DNA from: Planctomycetota bacterium
GTDB taxonomy: Bacteria; Planctomycetota; UBA1135; UBA2386
Reading direction: 5' to 3'
Length of the DNA: 64,000 bases
NCBI GenBank assembly: GCA_965228735.1
Contig: OZ245838.1
Span: 2,976,001-3,040,000, forward strand
Of the stretch, positions 26,110 to 38,929 are shown in pieces. The first letter of the stretch is position 1, and every line of letters starts with the position of its first letter. The notes under the pieces are model-generated. The model made no database searches. It was not told where the DNA came from and saw nothing but the letters and a program-made list of their open reading frames with translations. A program made the position numbers and the translations under genes.

Positions 26110-27176
26110 GCGCCGGACTCGGACGCGCCTTCGCGGCGGCGATCGGAATCCTGGCGATTGGGGCGCTGCCGGCGCAGGACCGGGTCTATCGCGTCTATGT
26201 CGCGTGCGAGTCCGCGGACGAGGTGCATCGCGTCGCGTTCGACGGCAAGCACGCGACGGTCGAGAAGGCGATCCGCGTCGGCTATCAGGCGACCGAGATC
26301 GAGGGGCCGCACGGCCTCACGGTCGGTCCCGAGGGCAAGTACTGGTACCTGTCGATCGCGCACGGCAAACCGTTCGGCCTGCTCTACAAGTACCGCACGT
26401 CCGATGACGAGCTCGTCGGCGAGTGCGAGCTCGGCATGTTCCCCGCGACGATGCAGATCAGTGCTCTGACCGGGCTGCTCTACTGCGTCAACTTCAACCT
26501 GCACGGGCGTATGCTGCCGAGCTCGGTGTCGATCGTCGACCCCGACGCGATGGTCGAGGTCGCGCGCACGATGACGGGCGCGATGCCGCACGGCTCGCGG
26601 CTGACGAAGGACGGCACGAAGCACTACTCGTGCGCGATGATGTCGGGCGAGCTGTACGAGATCGACGCCGTGACGTTCGAGGTCACGCGCAACATGCAAC
26701 TCGACGTCGACCTGCCGAAGAACCACGCATCGGTTGCCAAGCCGACCTGGATCCAGCCGCACCCGAAGACCGCGACGGTATGGGCCGCGCTCAACGGCAA
26801 GGCCGAGCTCGTCGAGGTCGACACGGTCGACTGGGTCATCAAGCGCCGATTCGCCTGCGCCAAAGGCCCCTACAACCTCGAGATCACGGGCGACGGCAAG
26901 CTGCTCGTCGTGACCTACAAGACCGCGGGCAAGATCGGCATCTGGGACGTCGAGCAGGGCAAGGAACTCGCCCGGCTCGACTCGAGCCGCCGCGTCACCC
27001 ACGGCGTGGTGATCAGCCCCGACGACCGCTACGCGTTCGTGACCTCGGAGGGCAAGAACGCCGAACCCGGCGCCCTCGACGTCGTCGACCTGCGCACGTT
27101 CAAGATCGCAGCGAGCGTCGAGGTCGGCCTGCAGGCCGGCGGCATCGCGTTCTACGAGATGACGTCGGGCCAGTGA
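26106..27176 (+). CDS. YncE/YVTN-like beta-propeller protein
   Basis: Signal peptide; YVACESAD, GPHGL, MPHG, THGVVISPDDRYAFVT; GTGA overlap with upstream gene. Confidence 0.82.
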   Translation: MSAGLGRAFAAAIGILAIGALPAQDRVYRVYVACESADEVHRVAFDGKHATVEKAIRVGYQATEIEGPHGLTVGPEGKYWYLSIAHGKPFGLLYKYRTSDDELVGECELGMFPATMQISALTGLLYCVNFNLHGRMLPSSVSIVDPDAMVEVARTMTGAMPHGSRLTKDGTKHYSCAMMSGELYEIDAVTFEVTRNMQLDVDLPKNHASVAKPTWIQPHPKTATVWAALNGKAELVEVDTVDWVIKRRFACAKGPYNLEITGDGKLLVVTYKTAGKIGIWDVEQGKELARLDSSRRVTHGVVISPDDRYAFVTSEGKNAEPGALDVVDLRTFKIAASVEVGLQAGGIAFYEMTSGQ

Positions 27177-27279
27177 CGGAGCAGTAGCGACCCGTCGGGG
27201 ATACGGACGACACGTGTCCGGATCCCGACCACATCCGTCCGTTCGTCGGGTGTGGCACGGCCATTGCGAGAACCCGGCG

Positions 27280-28101
27280 ATGACCAAGACCGCCGCGCCA
27301 TTCTCGACCCGCCTCGCCCTCCTCGCCCCCGCTCTGTTCCTGTGGGCCACTGCCTGCAACAGCGGCGGATCGGGCAACGCCAGCGATTCCAGCCTCTCCA
27401 CGGACCCGGCCAACGCGGGCGAACTCGCCGACGTCCAGCGCGCGATCAACGCGGCCGCACCCGGAGCGACCGTGGAGATCGGCGCCGGCACGTATCGCGG
27501 CCGGCTGGTCGTGCAGAAGAGCGTGCGAATCGTCGGCGCCGGTCGCGGCCTCACTTCGATTCACGGCCCGACATCGTTCGACGACGCGGTGATCGAGATT
27601 CGCAACGGCGCCGACGTGTTCGTTGGGGACCTCGCCGTATCGGGACCCTTCGGCGGGATCCGGGTCCGCGAGTCCACCCGCGTCGTGATCGAGTCGGTCA
27701 CGAGCAGCGCCACCGGCGACGCCGGCATCGAGGTCCGGGAATCATCCGACGTCCAGATCCTCGCCTGCATCAGCACCGGCAACGTCGGGTCCGGCATCCG
27801 CGTCCGCGACGACAGCACGAACGTGCGCATCGACAACTGCGATGTCCGCCAGAACGGCGATCACGGCGTGCGAATCCGCGACACGATCGGCGCGACGGTG
27901 GCGCGAAGCTCGGTCACCGACAACGTCCAGAGCGGCGTGCGCGTCCGCGACTCGCTGGCGATCGAGCTCACGGCGAACGACATCAGCGACAACACCGAGT
28001 ACGGCGTTCGCCTGCGCTCGACCCTGCTCGACCCGAACGACGTCCGCGCGAGCAACGTGATCGCCGGCAACCAGCTCGGCGACGTGCGGGTCGACGAGTA
28101 G
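27280..28101 (+). CDS. Right-handed parallel beta-helix (PbH1/NosD-like) lipoprotein
   Basis: Lipobox WATAC; VQRAINAAAPGATVEIGAGTY; repeated GI.VR.S..V.I..C....N units. Confidence 0.82.
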   Translation: MTKTAAPFSTRLALLAPALFLWATACNSGGSGNASDSSLSTDPANAGELADVQRAINAAAPGATVEIGAGTYRGRLVVQKSVRIVGAGRGLTSIHGPTSFDDAVIEIRNGADVFVGDLAVSGPFGGIRVRESTRVVIESVTSSATGDAGIEVRESSDVQILACISTGNVGSGIRVRDDSTNVRIDNCDVRQNGDHGVRIRDTIGATVARSSVTDNVQSGVRVRDSLAIELTANDISDNTEYGVRLRSTLLDPNDVRASNVIAGNQLGDVRVDE

Positions 28102-28243
28102 GCGACCAGGAACGGTCGGGCAAGCGCCACGGTCCTCGCGCACTGGCGCTCGTTCGACTGCATCTTCCTGCTTGCGACGACCCGGTGACTGTGCCACGCT
28201 GCGACCTGGGAAAGGAGAGCCCAGAGCCCAAGGAACCGTCCTG

Positions 28244-29221
28244 ATGGCAGAAGACACGACCTGCGACCCTTCGCACCGCTCGGTGCGCAGTCGCATCGGC
28301 AAGACAGTCCAGGCCTCCCCCGAACTCCCGGGCACCTTCCCGAGGCCGTCCGGTCAACGCCTGCAAGTTCCCACCCACGAGCAGTTCTGCTCGATGCTGA
28401 ACAAGGCGTCGACGCCCGCAGACCTCGTCGACCTGGACAAGCTGGTATCGGTCCTGAAGGACGCCGGGCGCCGGTTCCAGATCGCATTCGAGGATGCCGC
28501 CCGAATCGCGGTCTTCGACCTCGAGACGAAGCGGAAGGTCGGGCAGGTCCTGCGCCAAGTCTCTGGCTGGGGAGGAGATCGATCAAGCGACCGCGATACC
28601 CACTTGCACCGACGGTTGATCGAGCAACTGGGCAAGGCACGAGCGAAGCGGTATCGGGAACTCGCTGGAGTGCCGGAGAAGGTGTTCGTCGACTACCTGG
28701 CCGAACGAGCCGGAGAACGCGCGATTCCTAGCGTCACCGGAGCCATCCGCTTCGCACGGGCGAGCAAGAAGGGCAACCCCACGCCCAGGCCACGACCAAG
28801 GCGCAAGAACATCGAGCCGACGGACACCGCGATTCGCAAGTTCATCGATGGAGCGGAGCGACTCCTCGGCCAGTTCGATGTGGTCGTGAACCGGTCGGCG
28901 ATCGGAACTCGCCCCAACGTCGACCCGAAGTCGATGCACTCGTCGTCGTTCACCGGCCGTGTCGTCGTCATCGAGTGCCCTGATCCGGCCAAGTGGCTCC
29001 CGAGGTTTGCAGCGATGAGCTTCAACGCCAGGGTCTCTGACGTGATCGTACTGTTGCCGGCGGCAACCGGCGCCACATGGTTCCAACGACTTTTCGATAG
29101 CAGTTGGATGTGCTGTCTCATGCAAGGCGACGACGCCCTTGCCGCGGCTTACATCGGTGCACGGAAAGCCGGCTTCAAGACCGTGTTCCGCGAGATCGGA
29201 GCCGTGATCCAACACGCCTAG
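28244..29221 (+). CDS. Hypothetical protein resembling a degenerate phage-type DNA adenine methyltransferase fusion
   Basis: KRKVGQVL..GGDRSS..RYRELAGVPEKVF N-terminal region; C-terminal VIVLLPAATGATWFQRL..YIG..F..VF.EIG; no NPPY; start uncertain. Confidence 0.5.
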   Translation: MAEDTTCDPSHRSVRSRIGKTVQASPELPGTFPRPSGQRLQVPTHEQFCSMLNKASTPADLVDLDKLVSVLKDAGRRFQIAFEDAARIAVFDLETKRKVGQVLRQVSGWGGDRSSDRDTHLHRRLIEQLGKARAKRYRELAGVPEKVFVDYLAERAGERAIPSVTGAIRFARASKKGNPTPRPRPRRKNIEPTDTAIRKFIDGAERLLGQFDVVVNRSAIGTRPNVDPKSMHSSSFTGRVVVIECPDPAKWLPRFAAMSFNARVSDVIVLLPAATGATWFQRLFDSSWMCCLMQGDDALAAAYIGARKAGFKTVFREIGAVIQHA

Positions 29222-29375
29222 ACGGGTTCCCGAAGGCCTGCCGGCGACACCTGCGTCCGGTCGTCGTCAGCTTGACGGATCCGACGATCACACTAGCGTG
29301 CGACTCGGCCGCGACGAGCAACGGACATCCCGTTGATTCGATGTTCGGCCGAGTCAGCTGTTAGAGGAAAAGGCA

Positions 29376-29774
29376 ATGCTTCAGAAACTCGGAGCTTCCA
29401 TCGCGATCGTTCTGATCGCGGCTCTCACGTCGGCGTTCATCCAGGACGAAACCGTCCTCCCCGAGTACCTGTGCGAACCGACCAGTGTCTGCGCAGATTA
29501 CGAAGGCCCCCTCACGGCCTGCGCGGTACGCACCTGGGACCTCGATGGCGACGGTATCTGCGAGGAGACGTGCGAGAAGTGCGCGCCGCTCGGCAACAAC
29601 AACCAGGTGGTCTGGACCTGCGAGCGGTTCGAAGAAACCGAGTGCGTCATCGTTCTCGCGGGCGCGAAATGCTCGGGCTTCTGGCTCGTCTCGCCGTGCC
29701 TGAACGGAGTCTGCGCCCATCTCTTCTCGCCCACGACCGATCCGTGCACGTTCGGCGTACCGGACTGCTTCTGA
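29376..29774 (+). CDS. Secreted cysteine-rich small protein (13 Cys)
   Basis: GAGG SD-like site upstream; signal peptide; 13 Cys in about 100 mature residues; DLDGDG motif. Confidence 0.8.
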   Translation: MLQKLGASIAIVLIAALTSAFIQDETVLPEYLCEPTSVCADYEGPLTACAVRTWDLDGDGICEETCEKCAPLGNNNQVVWTCERFEETECVIVLAGAKCSGFWLVSPCLNGVCAHLFSPTTDPCTFGVPDCF

Positions 29775-29804
29775 CCAGACAGTAACGCGACACGGCAACC
29801 AACG

Positions 29805-30494
29805 ATGAAGCCAACGCGAATGCCCTACGTGCTGTTCCTGATCGGCATCGGCCTCTGGGCGGGTGCGCAGTGCGTTTCGAAGAAGCCCCCCATCGCAAGC
29901 CGTGTCGTGGTCGCGGGTGGCCTCCACAAATCGGTGGTGGTCCCCCCGGATCAAGGCCGGCCCACGATCCGCTATCGACTGCACAACAGCGGCGCGGACC
30001 CCGTGGCACGGCCGCACATCCAACGGTCCTGCAACTGCATCGAAGCCACCATCGAGCCCGAGGTGATCCCACCCGGCGGCGACGCCGAGATCGTGCTCGA
30101 GGTGATTCTCGCGCGCCTGGAACGGCAGGCGGGTGAGGGAGTGATCAACGTGCGCTGGTCGGATGGATCCTCCACCCAGCTCTCGTTCGACACCAAGCGT
30201 CAGCGAGTGCCAGCCCTTGCGCTCAGTCCCTCTACCGTCACCAAGCGCGCTGTCGACGCCAACGCGCGCCCCGCCGTGGCGTTCCTTGCCGACTACTTTC
30301 CGGACGAACCTCCGAGCATCCAGGAGTTCGACGTTCGGATGAACAACGATGAGAAGGCACAGCTCGAGAACGTCCGACCAATCGGCAACCACGCCATCGC
30401 CGGCAGCATCGTCCTCGCGGCCCATTCGGTGAGCCAGGGCACGATCGAACTCCAGGCGATGGGCCTGCCTGCAACACGACTTCAGATCCGATGA
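29805..30494 (+). CDS. DUF1573-domain protein, membrane anchored
   Basis: N-terminal TM; LHNSGADPV..IQRSCNCI..IPPGG..I fits the N.G..P..SCGC..IPPG pattern. Confidence 0.72.
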   Translation: MKPTRMPYVLFLIGIGLWAGAQCVSKKPPIASRVVVAGGLHKSVVVPPDQGRPTIRYRLHNSGADPVARPHIQRSCNCIEATIEPEVIPPGGDAEIVLEVILARLERQAGEGVINVRWSDGSSTQLSFDTKRQRVPALALSPSTVTKRAVDANARPAVAFLADYFPDEPPSIQEFDVRMNNDEKAQLENVRPIGNHAIAGSIVLAAHSVSQGTIELQAMGLPATRLQIR

Positions 30495-31594
30495 ACACAT
30501 CGCAACACCTCGTGACGGGCATCTGCATCACCGCCCTGTCCGCCGCCCTGCTCGGTCAGAGCGCGCCGCTCTCGACCATGCAGTCGATGAGCGAGAACTG
30601 CGCACTCGTCCTGGAGGAGTTCCAGACCAGCAAGGTCGAGGTCCTCGGCCGCAACGTGATCCGATACTCCAAACTCGACGACATGGAGCGAATCGAGTGG
30701 TGGGGTGCAAACGGCGAGGGCGAGACCGATCGTCAACCGCTCTCCGAGCTCACGGTCGAAACCGGGCCGACACCGACCGCGATCGCCTCGATCCGGTCGC
30801 TTCCGAACCGGACCCTGGCATTCGACGGTTTCCGCCAGGTCGACTGGTTCCTGAGCCGGAGCAAGCGCGACCCCTCGCGCCGATCCTGGGCCGCGCTCGC
30901 CGCGGCGGAACCGACGCTCCATGATGAGCGCCCCGGCTTCCTGCGGCTCATGGGACTCGGCCGGCTGGGGACGTGGCTCTGGGACGTCGGACCCGACGGG
31001 CGCAAGCCAGTTTGCCGTCAGCTTGCCACCGATCTGCTCATGGTCGGATACCCGGTCGGCGATCCAGAGGCGCATGCCGGGCTCTTCGCCTTCGACCTCA
31101 TCTACCTCGATCGCACCACCGGATTGCCGCAACGAATCGTCGAGCACATGCCCGCGACGCTCCCGCCAGATACGGTCTCCCCGGCGGATCTGGCGGATCT
31201 GGTGTTCTCCGAGATCGAGGTCGAGGAACGACACGCGAACGGCATCCCGCGACGGGCCACCTGGATCCACCGCAGTGCGGAGCTGCTGGACTTCCGTTGG
31301 GTCTGCCACGAGGCGGCACAACCGGGCGGAGCACTGAACGAACTCCTGGCCGACTCTTCGCACTGTCCGGTCGAGGACACGGAATGGCCGATTCGTCGAG
31401 CCGATCAACTGACCGCGGTGGACGACGCTCAGCAACCTCGGGCCCGGGCGCCCGAGCCGACGGCGCACGTAGCGGATCAGGGCGTCGAGATCGGCACCAT
31501 CGGGTTGGCACTCATGATCGTCGGAGGCTGCTGGGCCGCGGTCCGCGCCCTGCTCGACGCGCGGAATCGAAGGGCAAGCGTACGGGTTGCATGA
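30491..31594 (+). CDS. Exported hypothetical protein with C-terminal membrane anchor
   Basis: Signal-like N-terminus; C-terminal IGTIGLALMIVGGCWAAVRALL followed by basic residues; ATGA overlaps at both ends. Confidence 0.65.
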   Translation: MNTSQHLVTGICITALSAALLGQSAPLSTMQSMSENCALVLEEFQTSKVEVLGRNVIRYSKLDDMERIEWWGANGEGETDRQPLSELTVETGPTPTAIASIRSLPNRTLAFDGFRQVDWFLSRSKRDPSRRSWAALAAAEPTLHDERPGFLRLMGLGRLGTWLWDVGPDGRKPVCRQLATDLLMVGYPVGDPEAHAGLFAFDLIYLDRTTGLPQRIVEHMPATLPPDTVSPADLADLVFSEIEVEERHANGIPRRATWIHRSAELLDFRWVCHEAAQPGGALNELLADSSHCPVEDTEWPIRRADQLTAVDDAQQPRARAPEPTAHVADQGVEIGTIGLALMIVGGCWAAVRALLDARNRRASVRVA

Positions 31595-33966
31595 CACGTC
31601 GACTGCGCTGGCTCCCGGCTTCGGTCGCGGTGGTGATCATCCTGGCCACCGCGTGGCTGGCGCTGAGCGGAGCTCTCGACCCATCCGAGCCCGGTCCCAT
31701 CGGTGGTGCGGGCCAGTCCCCGACCCGCCAGGCAGCGCCCGCACCTCGAAGCCCGGCTTCGACGCGCCTCGACCGTTCCGCTGCGGCGCCCGACAGCGCT
31801 CCCGCCGACGAGGAGCTCACGACGACCGGACTGATCGTCCGGGTGACGGACGAGAACGGCTCCCCGCTGGCGGCGGTGCCGGTCCACTGGCAGGTCGACT
31901 CGGACCGTGAAACCCACTCGGACCGGACCGACCGCCAGGGCTTGCTGGTGCAGCACATGGCGGGCGGCCGGATGTTCATCGTCACGGTGGCAGGTCAGAC
32001 CAAGACCGCGAGCAGCCCCGCTCGCGTCGAGTTCGTCGTCGCCACCTTTCGACACCTCGAGATCGCCGTGACGGACCCGCAGGGTGACCCCGTCGCGGAC
32101 GCGACGGTCCTCCTGGGTTCGAAGGAGGTCTCGGCGGCAGGCACGCTGGCAGCCGTCACGGACGCCAGCGGGCACGCTCGGATCGACTCGTTCGACCGAC
32201 GCGACCTGGTGGCGGTCACGAAGGACGGCTGGCGCAGCACCCAGCGCCTGCCCGTGACGGCGGCCACCCCGATTCCCGGCGACGGCCGCCAGCGGCTCGC
32301 GTTCGTGCTCGAACCACTCACGAACGGCGACACCATGCCGGGCCGCGTCGTCGACGCGCTCGGTCGCCCGATCGCTGGGGTTTCGATCCGTTGGCACAGC
32401 GGCGGACGGCGCGAACGGCGAGGCGGTTTCCTGACGCGCCTGCCGGCACCGGACCGGGAACTCAGCGACCGAGCCGGTCGGTTCACGATACGCCATTGCG
32501 GCCGGCCCGGGCGATTGGTCGCGCGCAAGAACGGGCTCGCCGACGTCTCGCGAACCATCGCGGCGGCCGACCTCGACACCTCGATCCTGGAGATCACGAT
32601 GGTGGCGGAGTCGACGATCACGGGCTGGGTCCGCGACACGGCCGGCCAGGCGGTCGCCGGCGCGACGATCGTGGGGGCCGGGACCGATGGCATCGAATCC
32701 ACCGCGCTAGCCGACGCAGCCGGCCGATTCGTGCTTAGTGGACTCAGTCCCATGCCCTCTCGATCGGAGTCCGGCCCCAAGGCCGAATCCGAGTCGGGGG
32801 TCCGGGTCGCCGCGTTCCATCCGATCCACGGCGCCGCGCGCGCGTGGGTCCCGTGCTCCCACGCCTCGAGTGCGACCGTGAGCCTCACGCTGGCCGGCAC
32901 CCGGATCCGCGGTCGGACTCGGCGAGGCCCGACTCCGGTGATCGGCGCGCGCATCCGGATCCAGGGCACGGTCCCGAGTTGGCGCGGGGAAGGCTGGGAC
33001 CACGAGGGCTACGAAGTCGAGTCCACGGCACCGGACGGCGAGTTCGTGATCGTTCGGCCGAACAGCGGTCGCTGGCGGCTCGTGGCCACTCCCCCGGACC
33101 GAGCAGAGGCTGTCGCCATCCCGGTGGAGTGGCAGGGCTCGCGCCTGCCGCAATACCTCGACATCGACCTGGCCGTGGCGGAGGCCGACGCGGGGACGGT
33201 TCGCCTGACCGTCGTCGGCGACGGCGGCGAACCGATCGACAGCTACTACCTCAGGCTGCGGCAAGAGGACGGTAAGGGAACGCAGTCCTTCTACTGTGGC
33301 GCCGAAGACGGCGGACTCGAGGCAAGGGTCCGGTCCGGAACCTACCGCGTCGCCATCAGCCCGCGCGGCGGTGGACTGGTGCAGGTCGTCGGCGAGGTCA
33401 CGATCGCGCCGAACGCGGTCGCCGACCTGGGTGAGGTTCGCGTCGCCGGGCCAGGGACGCTCCGAGGCACCCTCCAGCCCCCCGCCGGGACCACCGTGCC
33501 AGACGCCGTCTTCGGCCGCATCGTCGCCAAGAACCGCTCACCGATCGTCCACACTTGGACCGGTCCGTTCGGCCGCTGGCAAATGGACCATCTCGCACCC
33601 GGGCGCTACGAACTCGCGCCGGGAGAGCGATCGCTGATCGACTTCGAGCCACGGTCGATCGAGATCGGCCCCGGCGACAACGAGGAGATCCAGCTGTTCG
33701 GCCGCCCATGTTGGCGCGGCAGGGTCGAGGTTCTCCTGCCCGAGTCGAGCCTCGGCATCTGGTCGATACGGTACGAGAACTGCCACGGCGTGCCCGAACA
33801 ACGGATGTTCGACGCCAGTTCGGCCGTGAACGGCGTCGCCCGAATCGACGGCGTCCATCTGCGGCCCGGCGTCTCGAACGTCAGGGTCGACCGCCCCGGT
33901 GGCGCTGCCACCGATCACGAAGTGCAGACGACGGGAGCCCGCTTCTTGCGGCTGGACCTGCGATGA
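31591..33966 (+). CDS. Membrane-anchored carboxypeptidase-regulatory-like (SdrD_B-like) repeat protein
   Basis: N-terminal TM; repeated V.D..G.P.A.A.V...TD..G.F modules; ATGA overlaps. Confidence 0.78.
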   Translation: MTRRLRWLPASVAVVIILATAWLALSGALDPSEPGPIGGAGQSPTRQAAPAPRSPASTRLDRSAAAPDSAPADEELTTTGLIVRVTDENGSPLAAVPVHWQVDSDRETHSDRTDRQGLLVQHMAGGRMFIVTVAGQTKTASSPARVEFVVATFRHLEIAVTDPQGDPVADATVLLGSKEVSAAGTLAAVTDASGHARIDSFDRRDLVAVTKDGWRSTQRLPVTAATPIPGDGRQRLAFVLEPLTNGDTMPGRVVDALGRPIAGVSIRWHSGGRRERRGGFLTRLPAPDRELSDRAGRFTIRHCGRPGRLVARKNGLADVSRTIAAADLDTSILEITMVAESTITGWVRDTAGQAVAGATIVGAGTDGIESTALADAAGRFVLSGLSPMPSRSESGPKAESESGVRVAAFHPIHGAARAWVPCSHASSATVSLTLAGTRIRGRTRRGPTPVIGARIRIQGTVPSWRGEGWDHEGYEVESTAPDGEFVIVRPNSGRWRLVATPPDRAEAVAIPVEWQGSRLPQYLDIDLAVAEADAGTVRLTVVGDGGEPIDSYYLRLRQEDGKGTQSFYCGAEDGGLEARVRSGTYRVAISPRGGGLVQVVGEVTIAPNAVADLGEVRVAGPGTLRGTLQPPAGTTVPDAVFGRIVAKNRSPIVHTWTGPFGRWQMDHLAPGRYELAPGERSLIDFEPRSIEIGPGDNEEIQLFGRPCWRGRVEVLLPESSLGIWSIRYENCHGVPEQRMFDASSAVNGVARIDGVHLRPGVSNVRVDRPGGAATDHEVQTTGARFLRLDLR

Positions 33967-34796
33967 GCGGTGCGACAGGTCACTCGCAACGCGGCCTGGT
34001 CGAGGTGCTCGCCACCAGCGGCTGGGGGGCGCTGCTGGTCTTCGGAGGCGCCGCCAAGCTCCGGCGGTGCGACCCGCGAGATGCGCACGTCACCTGGCTG
34101 ATCGAACAGGTGCTGCCCGGCGTGGCCTGTGAAGTCCTGATCGCACTCGAGTTCACGCTCGGCGCCGTCATTCTGTTCGGCCCCCGCACGCGGGCGTTCT
34201 GGCTGAGTTGCGTCACCGGCGGGATCTGTGTGCTGGCCCACATCGGACTCTGGTTCGTCAACGGCAACGTCGATTGCGGGTGCCTCGGTGAAGTCCGGGT
34301 CTCGCACGTGATCATGGCGGTGACTGCCGGCAGCCTCGTCGCCTTGGCAGCGCTCGGTCGAACTCGGGGACCGGTCGTGCCAGGAGCAGAACGAGCCGCT
34401 CCCGTCGCCGCCATTGGCCTGGCGCTCGCGCTTGCCTTCTGGGTCGGCGGCAACACGACATCACCGAGTCGGTGGCTGCCGCTGCTGGACGGGTTCGCTG
34501 CGAGCGGGGACATCGTGCTCTTCGGATCCTCGTCATGCGAGGTATGCACGGCGATCACGAGCCACGGCGGCATGCTGGTCGAAGGCCGCGAGTATCCGCT
34601 CGAAGCAGTCGTCCTGGTCCATCGGCGGGGCGATGGGACGGTCCACGGCCATGAGCTCTACAAAGGCAACGTCACGATTCCCGAGCCCGCATGGTGGGCC
34701 GCGGTCGGGGCCGCAGCTCCCGCTGCCTACGAGATCACGGCGGCCGGGGCACGTCGCGTCGAAGTCAGCCGATCGCAACTCCGGCGTAGCCGCTGA
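33963..34796 (+). CDS. MauE/DoxX-family redox membrane protein with C-terminal CxxC domain
   Basis: LLVFGGAAKL, LEFTLG, VDCGCLG in TM region; SSCEVC in C-terminal soluble part. Confidence 0.72.
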   Translation: MSGATGHSQRGLVEVLATSGWGALLVFGGAAKLRRCDPRDAHVTWLIEQVLPGVACEVLIALEFTLGAVILFGPRTRAFWLSCVTGGICVLAHIGLWFVNGNVDCGCLGEVRVSHVIMAVTAGSLVALAALGRTRGPVVPGAERAAPVAAIGLALALAFWVGGNTTSPSRWLPLLDGFAASGDIVLFGSSSCEVCTAITSHGGMLVEGREYPLEAVVLVHRRGDGTVHGHELYKGNVTIPEPAWWAAVGAAAPAAYEITAAGARRVEVSRSQLRRSR

Positions 34797-34886
34797 TCCA
34801 CGCGCATCGGTTCGGCTTCGGACGAACGCCGCGATCGTCGCATGCCACCTCGACGGCGGCAGCGACTCGCACGAGCTTGCGCTTGC

Positions 34887-37544
34887 TCACAGCGCGATGT
34901 CATTGACATCGTCGTAGCGCAACTGCAGCGGGATCCGGTGGACGACCTCGTCGTCGTCGTTCAGCAGCTGCAGTTCGACCGCCGTGTCCGGCACCTGGTA
35001 GACGGGTGAGCCACCCGATCGCACGGCCAGCCGGCGGAACGAGGAGATGACGTCCGGGCGGTGGACCGTGGTCACGATGGCCTGGCCCGCGGCATCCACG
35101 ACCTGCAGCTGCGTCACGCCGGCGGGGAACGTTCCGACGAGGCGGAACTTGCCCTGGCGCGCGACGACGATGCGCCCGTCGGCCCCGGGCGCGGGCACGT
35201 CGTGCGTGCCATCGACGATCCCGGGGCCGGTGAGCCACAGCCGCACCCCGCGCTGCGGACAATCGGTCACGCGCCACCGCCCTGCTGCATCGGTGCTCCC
35301 GGCCCGCGGCAGGGAGATGAACGTCGAGCTCGACGGTCCGCGCTCCGTCGTCGCGGTCACCGCGACCCGCACACCCTCGACCGGCTGGCCGAAACGGTCG
35401 ACGACCATGCCCGACAGCTCCGGCAGGATCGCGTCGACCGGCGCGCGCAGCACGACGTCGGTCGACCCGGCGGCAATCGGACCCGACTCGATCACGAGCA
35501 GCGACGTCGGTTCGACGATACGCAGCGAATACTCGCGCGGCAGGAGCGAGCCGATCTCGAAGGACCCGTCCGCGCCCGTCAACCACTCGCCGCCGCGCTG
35601 CCGCCCGTCGAGCCAGGCCTCGAGCGAACCGGTGAACGTGCCCCACGTCGTGCCGTCGTCGAGATAGACGTTGGCCTTCGCGAGTGGCTCGCCGTCCGGA
35701 CCGAGTGCGCGGCCACGGATCGTGAGCGGCTCGCCGCCGAGCGTCAGTGTCAGGTCCCGCCCGGCCGCGCGGTCGGCGCGCAACCGCGGCGCCAGCCCGT
35801 CCATGACCGCCGGCTGGAAGCCGACGAGGTGCGCCGTCACGGGTCCATCGAACCCGCTGCCGCCGATCTCGAACTCGAACCGCCCGTTCGCGTCGGCGGT
35901 CGCTCCCGTGCTGCCGAAGCGCACGTAGGCCTCGGCCGCGGGTCGACCGTCCGCGTGCCGGACGACGCCGGACACGATGGTGCGCTCGCTCGCCGGCGCG
36001 GCCCGCAGGGTCCAGGTGACGGGCGGCACGACCTCGTCCGCCGGAGTCGACAGCGTCACGTGACCGCGCTTCTGCGCCGTGACCCGCAGCAGCGCGTGGG
36101 CCGGAACCGTCCCGAGGTCGAACGTCCCGTCCGCGCTCGAGCTGTCGCTGAACGATCGATACCCCGACGAGTGCTCGAACCGCTGCGCGATGCCGGGCAG
36201 CGACTCGATGCTGTAGCCGACGCTGACGTACGCATCGTCGATCCCCGCCCCGTGGTCGTCGACGATGCGACCCGCAACGTGAACGGCCGGCCCGACGATC
36301 ATCGTCACCTGGCGGTCGTTCGGCAGCACGCCGTAGCCGTAGAGGATCCAGTCCGTCCCTGCGATGCGCAGATACTCGGCTTCGTCCGTGCCGACGATCT
36401 CGAACTGCCCGCGGCCATCGGTCGCGGCGCGCGGCCGCGTCGCCGTGCCGAGGAGCAACTGCTCGACGAACTCCGCATCGTGGCCGAACTGGCTCGCGAA
36501 ATGACGCCGCGCGGGTTCGATGGTGCGCAGCTGCTGCAGGTGGCCAGGCTCGAGCGTCATCGACATGTTCGGCCAACGCAGCTCGTTGCCGACGAGCTGC
36601 GGCAACTTCGGATCGAAGTGCACGACCTCGATGCCGGGCAGCGGCCGACCATCGACGGTCAGCACCTGACCCGCGAAGCGACCGCCCTCGGTCGGCGCGT
36701 CGACGTCCGTAGTCGATTCCGCAGCGGTCGCGACCGCTTCCCGCGTGGGTCTCGGATCCGCCGCGACGTCGGCGCGTTGGACGTTCGCCGCCGCCGTTGC
36801 CGTGGACCGGCCGGTCGAATCCGGCACGGGCTCGCGCCAGTCGACGCCGATGACTTCGAGACCGAGAACGAGCGCCAGCACGGCGCCCACGAGCGGCAAC
36901 ATCCACTTCATCGTGAGGCTCCCCAGGAGAACGATCATGGGAACGCCAGCACCGGCCGCAGCAGCGGTCGCCTTCGCCGCCCCGCGGGCGGAGAACAGCG
37001 GCAGCAACGCGGCACACCAGGCCTGCCGGTCGCCGAACTCGTCGTCGAGCCGCGCCCGCATGCGCTCGAGCCCGCGCTGGAGCTGCGTGCGCACCGTGTT
37101 CACGGGGCGGTCGAGACGTTCGGCGATCTGCCGCGGCTCGAGGTCGTCGAAGAAGCGGAGCAGCACCACGGTGTGATACGGCTCGTCGAGCTCGAACAGC
37201 TCGTCGACGAGGCGCTTGTGCGCGGCCGCGCGTTGCGCGGCCTCGGCCGGATCGTCGCTCGGGTCGTGCGCGCGAGCGGCCACCGATTCGGCGGCGACCG
37301 TTGCCTCACGACGACGACGACGACCGTCCTGGCGACCAAACCCGCGCGCGGCGTTCTTCGCGACCCGCGCGAGCCAACCCTTGGGATTGGTCAACGCGCG
37401 GGGCGGCCGCGTCATGGCCTCGAGCATCGTCTGCTGCGCGACGTCGTCGGCGCGCGAAGGATCGGCCACGAGGCTGCGCGCGAGCGCGCGGACCCAGTCC
37501 TGGTGGGCGAGCAGAGTGGCGATGGTCGAATCGGTTCCGGTCAT
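34887..37544 (-). CDS. ECF sigma factor fused via TM segment to carboxypeptidase-regulatory-like repeats
   Basis: WVRALARSLVAD..ADDVAQQT..GWLARVAKN (sigma2); LDEPYHTVVLLRFF..IAERL..TVRTQLQRGL (sigma4); TM; G.V.D..G.P..TD..G.F repeats. Confidence 0.88.
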   Translation of the reverse strand: MTGTDSTIATLLAHQDWVRALARSLVADPSRADDVAQQTMLEAMTRPPRALTNPKGWLARVAKNAARGFGRQDGRRRRREATVAAESVAARAHDPSDDPAEAAQRAAAHKRLVDELFELDEPYHTVVLLRFFDDLEPRQIAERLDRPVNTVRTQLQRGLERMRARLDDEFGDRQAWCAALLPLFSARGAAKATAAAAGAGVPMIVLLGSLTMKWMLPLVGAVLALVLGLEVIGVDWREPVPDSTGRSTATAAANVQRADVAADPRPTREAVATAAESTTDVDAPTEGGRFAGQVLTVDGRPLPGIEVVHFDPKLPQLVGNELRWPNMSMTLEPGHLQQLRTIEPARRHFASQFGHDAEFVEQLLLGTATRPRAATDGRGQFEIVGTDEAEYLRIAGTDWILYGYGVLPNDRQVTMIVGPAVHVAGRIVDDHGAGIDDAYVSVGYSIESLPGIAQRFEHSSGYRSFSDSSSADGTFDLGTVPAHALLRVTAQKRGHVTLSTPADEVVPPVTWTLRAAPASERTIVSGVVRHADGRPAAEAYVRFGSTGATADANGRFEFEIGGSGFDGPVTAHLVGFQPAVMDGLAPRLRADRAAGRDLTLTLGGEPLTIRGRALGPDGEPLAKANVYLDDGTTWGTFTGSLEAWLDGRQRGGEWLTGADGSFEIGSLLPREYSLRIVEPTSLLVIESGPIAAGSTDVVLRAPVDAILPELSGMVVDRFGQPVEGVRVAVTATTERGPSSSTFISLPRAGSTDAAGRWRVTDCPQRGVRLWLTGPGIVDGTHDVPAPGADGRIVVARQGKFRLVGTFPAGVTQLQVVDAAGQAIVTTVHRPDVISSFRRLAVRSGGSPVYQVPDTAVELQLLNDDDEVVHRIPLQLRYDDVNDIAL

Positions 37545-37648
37545 GGCGTTCACGACCCCAGTGCCGCGGGGCCGCGAGCGGACTCACGAATACCCCGATT
37601 CTACCCCGACCTCGGCCAGGATCTCGCAAGACCCGACTGACAAGGTGG

Positions 37649-38929
37649 TTACGACCAGGCGTCGAGCAGCCGCCGGCACTCGGCGAGCAGCCAATCGGAC
37701 TCTTCGAACGGCCGCAGGCTGATGTCCTGCCACAGGATGCGCCCCTTCGGATCGACGAGGAACGTGCCGTGCAGCGCTTCGTCCGAGAACTCGTCCCAGC
37801 AGTTCCACTGCTTGAACACCGCGCCCTGCGGGTCGCACAGGACTTCGAAGTGCAGCGGATCGACGCCGTTCTCCTGCGCCGCCTGCCACGCCGCGCGCAC
37901 GGCGTTCTGATCGTCGGTGCCGATCGTCACGACCTCGATCCCGGCGGCGTTGAACTTCGGGGTCTTGGGTTCCAGCTCGACCAGCTGGGCGACGCAGTGC
38001 GCTCAACCAAAGCCGAGGAAGAACACGACGAGCACGGGTTTGCCCGCGTAGTCGGCGAGCTTGCCGCGACCGTTGAGGCCGCGGGGGAGATCGAATGCCG
38101 GGGCCTGCTGCGGCTGCCATTCCAAGCCGTCCTCACTGCCACCCATCAGGACCGTCAGCTTCGACAAGTGGCCGTCCGGGAGCCAAAGCCGTGGGAAGTG
38201 CAGCTGCGGATGCCGCGGCAGCCGCGGCGCCACCCGCGTGTTCAGGTCCAGGCGCGCACTACCGAGGCCGCCCACGGACTCGCTGTAGCCGGGAACCAGG
38301 AACGGCATCGCGGCCATCCGCCGCATGTAGCCGTTGGCCGCCGAGTAGAACGCTTCGAACGTCGCCAGCGATGGTGACGAGTCACCATCGCAGCCCGCCC
38401 TCGTCTTGGGCCCCAATGTTCGAGCCTGCTCGAATCCCGCGAGCCTCGCGGCCAACGAGCCGTCGATCTCGCGCAGCCGCGCAATCAGCGTCTCGGCACG
38501 CTCGACGGGCTCCTTCTGAAAACCCGCATCGACGAGCTCCGGCTGCCGATCGACTCCGAAGTACTCCCGATACGCTGCGACGATGGCCGCTTCGGGCGCC
38601 GGCGCCTTGCCGACGAACTTGTTCGCCTGCCACACGAGCCGCGCCGCGCGGTTGTTGTTCGACCGCAACGACAGCGCGAGCCCGAGATGCGCGATCGCCC
38701 GCTCCGGCTCGCGATGCGCGAGCTCGCGGAACATGCGGGCCGCCTCCCAGCCCCAACCCGCGGCGAGCCGTTCGAGGCCCGCGTCGAGCAGTTCGGTGCT
38801 CGACAATGCCGGATCCGGCCGGCGCCACGGCAGGTCCCGCGCCAGATCCTGCGCTCGCAACGGTGCTACCGCGCACGTCACGAGCAGCACGACCGTCGCG
38901 ACGGCGCGGAAACGAACTTCGGTTCGCAT
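37649..38929 (-). CDS. Putative selenoprotein: signal peptide + TPR-like region + AhpC/TSA redoxin with UxxC (UGA read-through at 38005-38003)
   Basis: APAFDLP..LADYAGKPVLVVFFLGFG-TGA-AHCVAQL..GIEVVTIGTD..LCDP..HGTFLVDPKGRILWQD in one frame; joins track ORFs 38003..38929 and 37649..37930. Confidence 0.85.
37972..37988 (-). promoter_or_regulatory. Candidate bacterial SECIS hairpin
   Basis: Minus strand CCAGCT-GGTCG-AGCTGG, 6-bp perfect stem from +15 after the UGA, loop starting GG at +21. Confidence 0.65.

Follow-up and report, generated by a model that had tools for sequence, protein, structure and literature searches.

The window analysed here, a stretch of 64,000 nucleotides (G000:C1:2976001-3040000), belongs to a planctomycete genome of 7.19 Mb, which consists of a single contig with 69% GC and is 93% complete. 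It contains five co-oriented genes, in the following called the cassette. Open reading frames (ORFs) and Pfam matches identify their products as a small cysteine-rich protein (the mini-protein), a DUF1573 protein, an exported protein, an N-anchored CarboxypepD_reg repeat protein (abbreviated CPR), and MauE with a C-terminal CxxC domain.

29363..29368, forward strand: ribosome-binding-site-like AGAGGA, preceding the mini-protein ATG
29376..29774, forward strand: Cys-rich mini-protein, 132 aa, 13 Cys, hydrophobic N-terminus
29805..30494, forward strand: DUF1573 protein, Ig-like, SCNC at 76-78; start may be 29820
30491..31594, forward strand: exported protein, 367 aa, hydrophobic stretches 7-25 and 332-357, the latter a C-terminal transmembrane (TM) segment, basic tail
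31591..33966, forward strand: CPR, 791 aa, CarboxypepD_reg / Ig-like repeats (Pfam), N-anchored
33963..34796, forward strand: MauE plus C-terminal thioredoxin-like CxxC domain; homolog P0001, 46%

The last four genes are joined by ATGA overlaps at 30491, 31591 and 33963, and a gap of 30 nt separates the mini-protein ORF from the DUF1573 gene. This arrangement, 13-Cys ORF, four partner genes and three overlaps, had been noticed in a preliminary description of the DNA and was borne out by the sequence and by Pfam. The region 26500-36500 is found on a single contig without a differing letter in four out of four public runs, which may include the source of the sequence itself. By codon score, each of the five cassette genes ranks at the very bottom of the genome (0.2-2.5 percentile), while the three flanking genes examined are placed between the 22 and 91 percentile. 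With such atypical scores, the cassette has the appearance of an island that was acquired or changes fast.

The hydrophobic N-terminus of the mini-protein comprises residues 1-28, and from hydrophobicity alone a Sec signal peptide is likely at about residues 1-20. The mature part is acidic with a net charge of -14. Its cysteines are located at positions 33, 39, 49, 62, 66, 69, 82, 90, 99, 108, 113, 124 and 131 (spacing C5C9C12C3C2C12C7C8C8C4C10C6C, containing no CxC); the mean Cys content of the genome is 1.0%. Among 1.84 billion representatives, only two homologs were detected, both metagenomic, P0002 (53%, E 1.5e-39) and P0003 (35%, E 4.9e-10). In the alignment of the three sequences all 13 cysteines are invariant, as is the spacing C62-x3-C66-x2-C69, and judged by this conservation the ORF is a genuine gene family. 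Searches of Pfam and PHROG gave no match, and the AlphaFold2 (AF2) model was unusable with a predicted local distance difference test score (pLDDT) of 34.

The DUF1573 protein matches PF07610 with 27.3 bits (cut-off 26.1). Its CxC motif reads SCNC, in most class members SCGC. The hydrophobic N-terminus ends near C23, and the protein is possibly a lipoprotein. A weak match to the NCBIfam OS_HP2 (seleno)protein model is below cut-off. Selenoprotein forms of DUF1573 with UGC exist, as stated in the available parts of two reports (PMC9312934, PMC13188914). The window protein was rejected as such a form, both motif positions being Cys codons in an open frame without in-frame TGA. When counterparts from other loci were compared with the Ig-like HYDIN/CFA65/VesB model, the protein of locus L101 was over and that of L075 under the cut-off. 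For the 367-aa protein, no Pfam match was obtained and a homolog search returned only itself. In the ESM Atlas, it scored 0.94 to clusters from Planctomycetota/Verrucomicrobiota and 0.82-0.84 (feature score) to TP_0789-like clusters, with a recognition score (2125) under the reliable range; its fold is possibly LolA/TP_0789-like. Proteins in the corresponding slot of other loci could not be aligned to it. The CarboxypepD_reg match of the CPR amounts to 104 bits in three stretches, and five cysteines lie outside its anchor.

The MauE part matches PF07291 with 30.6 bits (cut-off 27) over residues 18-132. Its CGC motif (C105-G-C107) is located between hydrophobic segments 78-99 and 111-134, the CxxC of the fused domain is C192-E-V-C195, and the profile of this domain (A4) matches the putative thioredoxin 2fgx weakly (E 0.005). 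K32 and E63 correspond to the conserved Lys of TM1 and Glu of TM2 near the predicted quinone site, which, counting ungapped rows of the MauE alignment, are retained in 36 of 37 (Lys) and 41 of 42 (Glu). According to the available part of a recent preprint (bioRxiv 10.64898/2026.03.05.709764), two MauE proteins replace DsbB in an E. coli dsbB strain, both cysteines of the CXC loop being needed; conserved Lys, Glu and Phe residues are named, thioredoxin-like fusions account for 8.2% of InterPro MauE entries, and MauE is considered a generalist. The fusion is therefore predicted to be a DsbB+DsbA-like oxidase. By search, DsbB and VKOR were not detected in the 93%-complete genome, while controls gave matches. 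DsbD was found, and a second MauE match lies elsewhere in the genome.

Recurrence in related genomes

Close relatives of the window's proteins themselves are nearly absent, and recurrence was therefore searched at the level of the family. Of 91 family genomes, 57 contain matches to PF07291, 97 in all. By eye, 40 MauE regions (41 matches) were taken, mostly those reaching the C-terminal CxC part of the model; outside this set were two matches of the own genome, 46 mostly short DoxX-like matches, and eight full-length matches with other contexts at +/-1.5 kb. Mini-proteins were defined as ORFs of 80-200 aa with at least eight Cys after residue 20, a hydrophobic N-terminus, and less than 10% Arg. 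On the MauE strand within 5.5 kb, such ORFs were present in 24 of the 40 loci, distributed over 16 genomes, compared to three loci on the opposite strand and 2.1% of random windows of the own genome. Nineteen of these 24 loci also contain a co-oriented CarboxypepD_reg gene (CPR profile or Pfam).

A second set was obtained starting from the mini-proteins. The profile of the commonest type revealed nine new loci and a widened profile 17 more, 26 in total. In 25 of them an N-anchored gene product of about 500-600 aa is encoded next to the mini-protein, and the remaining locus ends at a contig edge. CPR profiles recognized 22 of these neighbours, the other three being assigned by architecture, and contig ends truncate two of them. 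The association of Cys-rich ORFs with MauE loci suggested by the preliminary description is thus seen in the gene neighbourhoods of both sets. MauE occurs in the same gene run in 14 of the 26 loci (11 by profile, three by eye; L109 and L110 are near-identical) and is often translationally coupled. In the own genome, only three of 78 CPR-like ORFs have a mini-protein by these definitions within 2.5 kb, one of them being a cytochrome c. Two mini-protein and CPR pairs are arranged in tandem in L129 and L130, each mini-protein with its own CPR, and the sequence clusters of mini-proteins and CPRs mirror each other.

Because the CPR adjoins the mini-protein in 25 of 26 loci and MauE shares the gene run in only 14, mini-protein and CPR form the core unit; MauE often joins them as a third gene, and the roles of DUF1573 and of the exported protein are accessory. 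Across dozens of related genomes, the combination returns with many differing Cys patterns. On the choice of partners the initial interpretation finds no support: the most constant one is the CPR, neither DUF1573 nor MauE, and DUF1573 is missing from most cassettes. Ten other loci contain both a DUF1573(-like) gene and MauE. The expectation that such loci carry a Cys-rich ORF held in part: a mini-protein is present in five (L088, L101, L118, L139, L143), L073 has a 459-aa protein with 14 Cys in its place, L075 and L117 are cut by contig ends, and L103 and L140 have none. All five gene types of the window are found in L101 in different order, and L143 has a window-like five-gene set by architecture; L139 and L143 are from outside the class. 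A separate conserved trio consisting of DUF1573(-like), a gene of 140 aa, rhodanese-like by its motif, and a short MauE occurs without Cys-rich ORF in L041, L042, L103, and L140.

Cysteine content, selection and fold of the mini-proteins

The number of cysteines in the mature part is even in 54 of 60 mini-proteins and in 36 of 39 sequence clusters, compared to 181 of 308 (59%) and 469 of 841 (56%) in two control sets of the own genome. Since the counts are mostly even, they point to disulfides; the family of the window mini-protein is one of three odd clusters. None of the 60 mini-proteins is cationic, all having a net charge of zero or below, which disfavours the cationic-peptide form of the toxin option considered initially. 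In diverged pairs of relatives with computable dS, the ratio of nonsynonymous to synonymous substitution rates (dN/dS) was 0.17-0.39 for mini-protein and CPR genes, demonstrating purifying selection on both. In near-identical pairs, which differ by few changes, the range was 0.26-1.85, while one pair proved saturated; a value above 1 was obtained only for the near-identical pair L109/L110 with seven changes.

The commonest type contains 12 Cys (L081:11629-12009), and a confident all-beta AF2 model was obtained (pLDDT 87, predicted template modelling score 0.72). It exhibits a doubled six-Cys framework, as seen in 20 aligned relatives (A7), and among the 339 class genomes searched 27 match its profile, 24 of these belonging to the window's family. 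No significant structural match to the model was detected in PDB or BFVD; among weak Foldseek rows TGF-beta chains recur, with a best E of 0.61 and TM-scores of 0.15-0.24. The growth-factor cystine knot is characterized by the spacing C...CxGxC...C...CxC with bonds C1-C4, C2-C5, and C3-C6. The 12-Cys family, which shows this spacing in many relatives, is reminiscent of the knot but differs from the TGF-beta type by having the six-Cys unit doubled in one chain. The window mini-protein does not share the 12-Cys framework and is devoid of the CxGxC and CxC motifs. Two other Cys-rich proteins are encoded beside MauE fusions, a DUF4215 protein with a C-terminal IPTL-CTERM match below cut-off (L104:803-1309) and a protein with a C-terminal hydrophobic-plus-basic tail (L068:12576-13001).

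Neighbouring genes and other cysteine-rich proteins of the genome

Two genes flank the cassette, and further mini-proteins of the secreted type with 10-13 Cys, four in total, are encoded at three other sites of the genome:

28172..29221, forward strand: ORF of 349 aa, no family, upstream of the mini-protein; start uncertain, possibly 28394
34887-37553, reverse strand: extracytoplasmic function (ECF) sigma factor-TM-CarboxypepD_reg repeat fusion, convergent with the cassette
G000:C1 3203384-3204203, forward strand: tandem mini-protein pair, 62% identical, no MauE nearby
G000:C1 555036-555488, reverse strand: mini-protein beside N-anchored protein, no MauE nearby
G000:C1 4360576-4361001, reverse strand: mini-protein beside N-anchored protein, no MauE nearby

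The 349-aa ORF has no match in Pfam, NCBIfam, PHROG, or PDB. Homologs are located directly upstream of a mini-protein in L123 (7760-8650) and L090 (7450-8565), and a partial one upstream of a mini-protein in L087 (7253-7570). In G002, which belongs to the same genus, this ORF family is seen at a site that lacks synteny, next to a mini-protein of another type. It is possible that the ORF specifies a regulator or is the remnant of a mobile element.

Beyond the ECF fusion, 37649-38929 on the reverse strand constitutes one frame with a single in-frame TGA (context F-G-*-A-H-C) and an AhpC/TSA-like domain. The genome encodes SelA, and the ORF probably specifies a selenoprotein whose motif reads UxxC; the hairpin 3' of the TGA is only a putative selenocysteine insertion sequence. 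PSCyt1, a planctomycete cytochrome c domain, has 11 matches in the genome and none in 14 controls, as expected for a probable planctomycete. A Cys-rich precursor with repeated CKG.GGC-like motifs is encoded at G000:C1 4856051-4856410 (forward strand), and similar precursors are found near DoxX genes in L056, L059, L063, and L098; presumably they resemble bufferin-type precursors.

Proposed function and relation to known systems

The presence of MauE and a thioredoxin-like CxxC domain next to a gene for a small exported protein is reminiscent of mauE-mauD-mauA, where the small protein needs about six disulfides. In the window the two functions are fused, and CPR, DUF1573, and the 367-aa protein are without mau counterpart. 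Methylamine dehydrogenase genes, which had not been visible in the window, were not detected genome-wide either (Me-amine-dh_L and Me-amine-dh_H, for MauA and MauB), though no control genome matched these models. The small subunit of the enzyme contains two conserved Trp, which form the tryptophan tryptophylquinone (TTQ) cofactor. The mini-protein was tried as such a subunit and rejected, as it has no Pfam match and its family alignment of three sequences no invariant Trp. Due to the missing Trp a TTQ cofactor appears unlikely, and by this small-subunit comparison the cassette is not a mau cluster. The window MauE shares with the proteins of the preprint the Pfam match, the CXC loop, Lys and Glu, as well as the thioredoxin-like fusion and a host without detected DsbB or VKOR; a cassette with Cys-rich clients, with CPR or with DUF1573 does not appear in the available part of that text (10.64898/2026.03.05.709764).

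The interpretation that we favour, with modest confidence, is a cell-envelope cassette whose mini-protein is likely exported, would be oxidatively folded by the MauE fusion, and probably acts at the surface together with its cognate CPR. Judging from their hydrophobic N-termini, all five products would be exported by Sec. By analogy with the activity of other MauE proteins, clients would be oxidized by the fused CxxC domain, the mini-protein likely being one of them, and quinone would receive electrons from the CxC loop. Twelve of its 13 cysteines might form six disulfides, leaving the invariant odd one for a dimer or a link to a partner. Conceivably, DUF1573 with its CxC and the 367-aa protein have accessory functions, as an isomerase or chaperone and as a carrier, for certain mini-protein frameworks only. 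The gene pairing suggests that the folded mini-protein might be a variable module for binding that sits on the CPR stalk or is recognized by it. A bolder version, which we regard as rather doubtful, is a two-part surface organelle of cognate mini-protein and CPR in which a swappable, disulfide-locked cap is mounted on a membrane-anchored beta-sandwich CPR stalk and provided with its own oxidase, an Ig-like DUF1573 chaperone with CxC, and a LolA-like carrier. If this were true, the invariant 13th cysteine in the window would link cap and stalk covalently, the five cysteines of the stalk also being odd in number. The family would then represent a repertoire, assembled by nature, of numerous unrelated disulfide frameworks; for one of them at least, a fold is predicted with confidence and found no counterpart when PDB and BFVD were searched.

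Several observations weigh against the favoured interpretation. In 16 of the 40 MauE loci no mini-protein was detected, the eight further full-length MauE matches (+/-1.5 kb view) have none either, giving 24 of 48 in the worst case, and the same applies to five of seven MauE-CxxC matches at phylum level. Conversely, eight of the 26 loci found by mini-protein profiles are without MauE though the DNA is present, four others being cut by contig ends, and none of the four additional mini-proteins of the own genome has MauE nearby. The genomes are kin, and locus counts are not independent; mirrored clusters of mini-proteins and CPRs are expected from linkage alone. The profile of the window mini-protein matched no other genome among 400, and P0002 and P0003 were obtained as sequences without loci. 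Profiles show no relationship between the window's own family and the common 12-Cys family, so the recurrence statistics describe analogous rather than homologous mini-proteins; the Cys count of the window's family is odd. Finally, Leu-Gly follows the CGC of the window MauE, whose activity is predicted only, where the preprint has a conserved Phe; among 44 aligned rows, Phe is found in 27 and Leu in 10.

The main rival is signalling. The mini-protein would act outside the cytoplasm, as a ligand or modulator sensed by the CPR as receptor, and an ECF sigma factor would be under this control; the cassette would be a split version of the ECF-TM-CPR fusions common in the genome. Consistent with this idea, 11 of 15 ORFs just upstream of mini-proteins, picked by eye, match sigma-70 r2 or r4, and such a fusion is convergent with the window cassette. 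Most cassette CPRs, however, have a pre-TM stretch too short for an anti-sigma domain. What precedes the window cassette is no sigma gene but the 349-aa ORF, an arrangement shared with L123 and L090. With 78-94 CPR-like ORFs in the genome, chance may account for the convergent neighbour, and an upstream sigma factor may merely transcribe the cassette. We consider signalling unlikely.

Even less probable is a released disulfide-rich product, a peptide made by ribosomes and modified after translation (RiPP) or a bacteriocin-like toxin, for which the membrane proteins would provide maturation and immunity. The decRiPPter analysis provides a close parallel, three Streptomyces families of candidate RiPPs with mauE(/mauD) and precursors of at least eight Cys (PMC7794033). 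As in the window, mauE is located outside a mau cluster and adjoins the small gene, and the same logic was proposed. By its 13-Cys ORF beside mauE and the missing mauA/mauB matches, for which control genomes were likewise silent, the cassette corresponds to these candidates. These families belong to another phylum and are themselves uncharacterised, and the available part of the report mentions no CPR, DUF1573, or exported partner (PMC7794033). A toxin would also fit the atypical codon usage and the Peptidase_C39 domain that two loci have in place of the exported protein, L075 with a match over and L101 with one below cut-off. Against it stand the net charges, the size of the mini-proteins, folded domains of about 100-150 aa rather than short cores, the prevailing purifying selection, the anchored C-termini of two relatives (L104, L068), and the absence of a transporter from the window cassette.

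Equally improbable, in our estimate, is that the MauE fusion is a general oxidase of the envelope proteome riding on a variable island, mini-protein and CPR not relying on this copy. The generalist view of the preprint, the failure to find DsbB or VKOR, orphan Cys-rich ORFs, and cassettes without MauE would agree with this explanation, whereas the frequent and often coupled position of MauE in the gene run, its codon score at the 0.2 percentile, as in the island and unlike the core genome, and the second MauE match argue against it. The pathway postulated in the preliminary description stands in part: the DsbB-like activity of MauE (10.64898/2026.03.05.709764) and even Cys counts speak for folding, while "dedicated" conflicts with the generalist view and with the four mini-proteins lacking an adjacent MauE. 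Metal binding by the cysteines, for instance by C62-x3-C66-x2-C69, in a cassette handling metal or redox stress is highly improbable: the odd but invariant cysteines with CxxxCxxC spacing in all three homologs and the selenoprotein forms of DUF1573 (PMC9312934, PMC13188914) would be compatible, but the even-Cys bias of the wider set, export beside an oxidase, and the lack of metal transporters or regulators among the ORFs around the cassette speak against it.

The literature searched, which left most subscription papers and supplements outside, contains no description of a mini-protein and CPR cassette or of DUF1573 with MauE. The cassette is real, recurrent, and undescribed in these sources; MauE beside Cys-rich precursors has already been published for Streptomyces (PMC7794033). 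The cassettes supply natural, co-encoded clients for the newly recognized MauE disulfide pathway, and therefore the question whether MauE is a generalist or client-specific becomes testable. They also provide a concrete context for DUF1573 and for one branch of the expanded planctomycete CarboxypepD_reg proteins, and they add diverse bacterial mini-protein scaffolds with five to eight disulfides, a class better known from eukaryotes.

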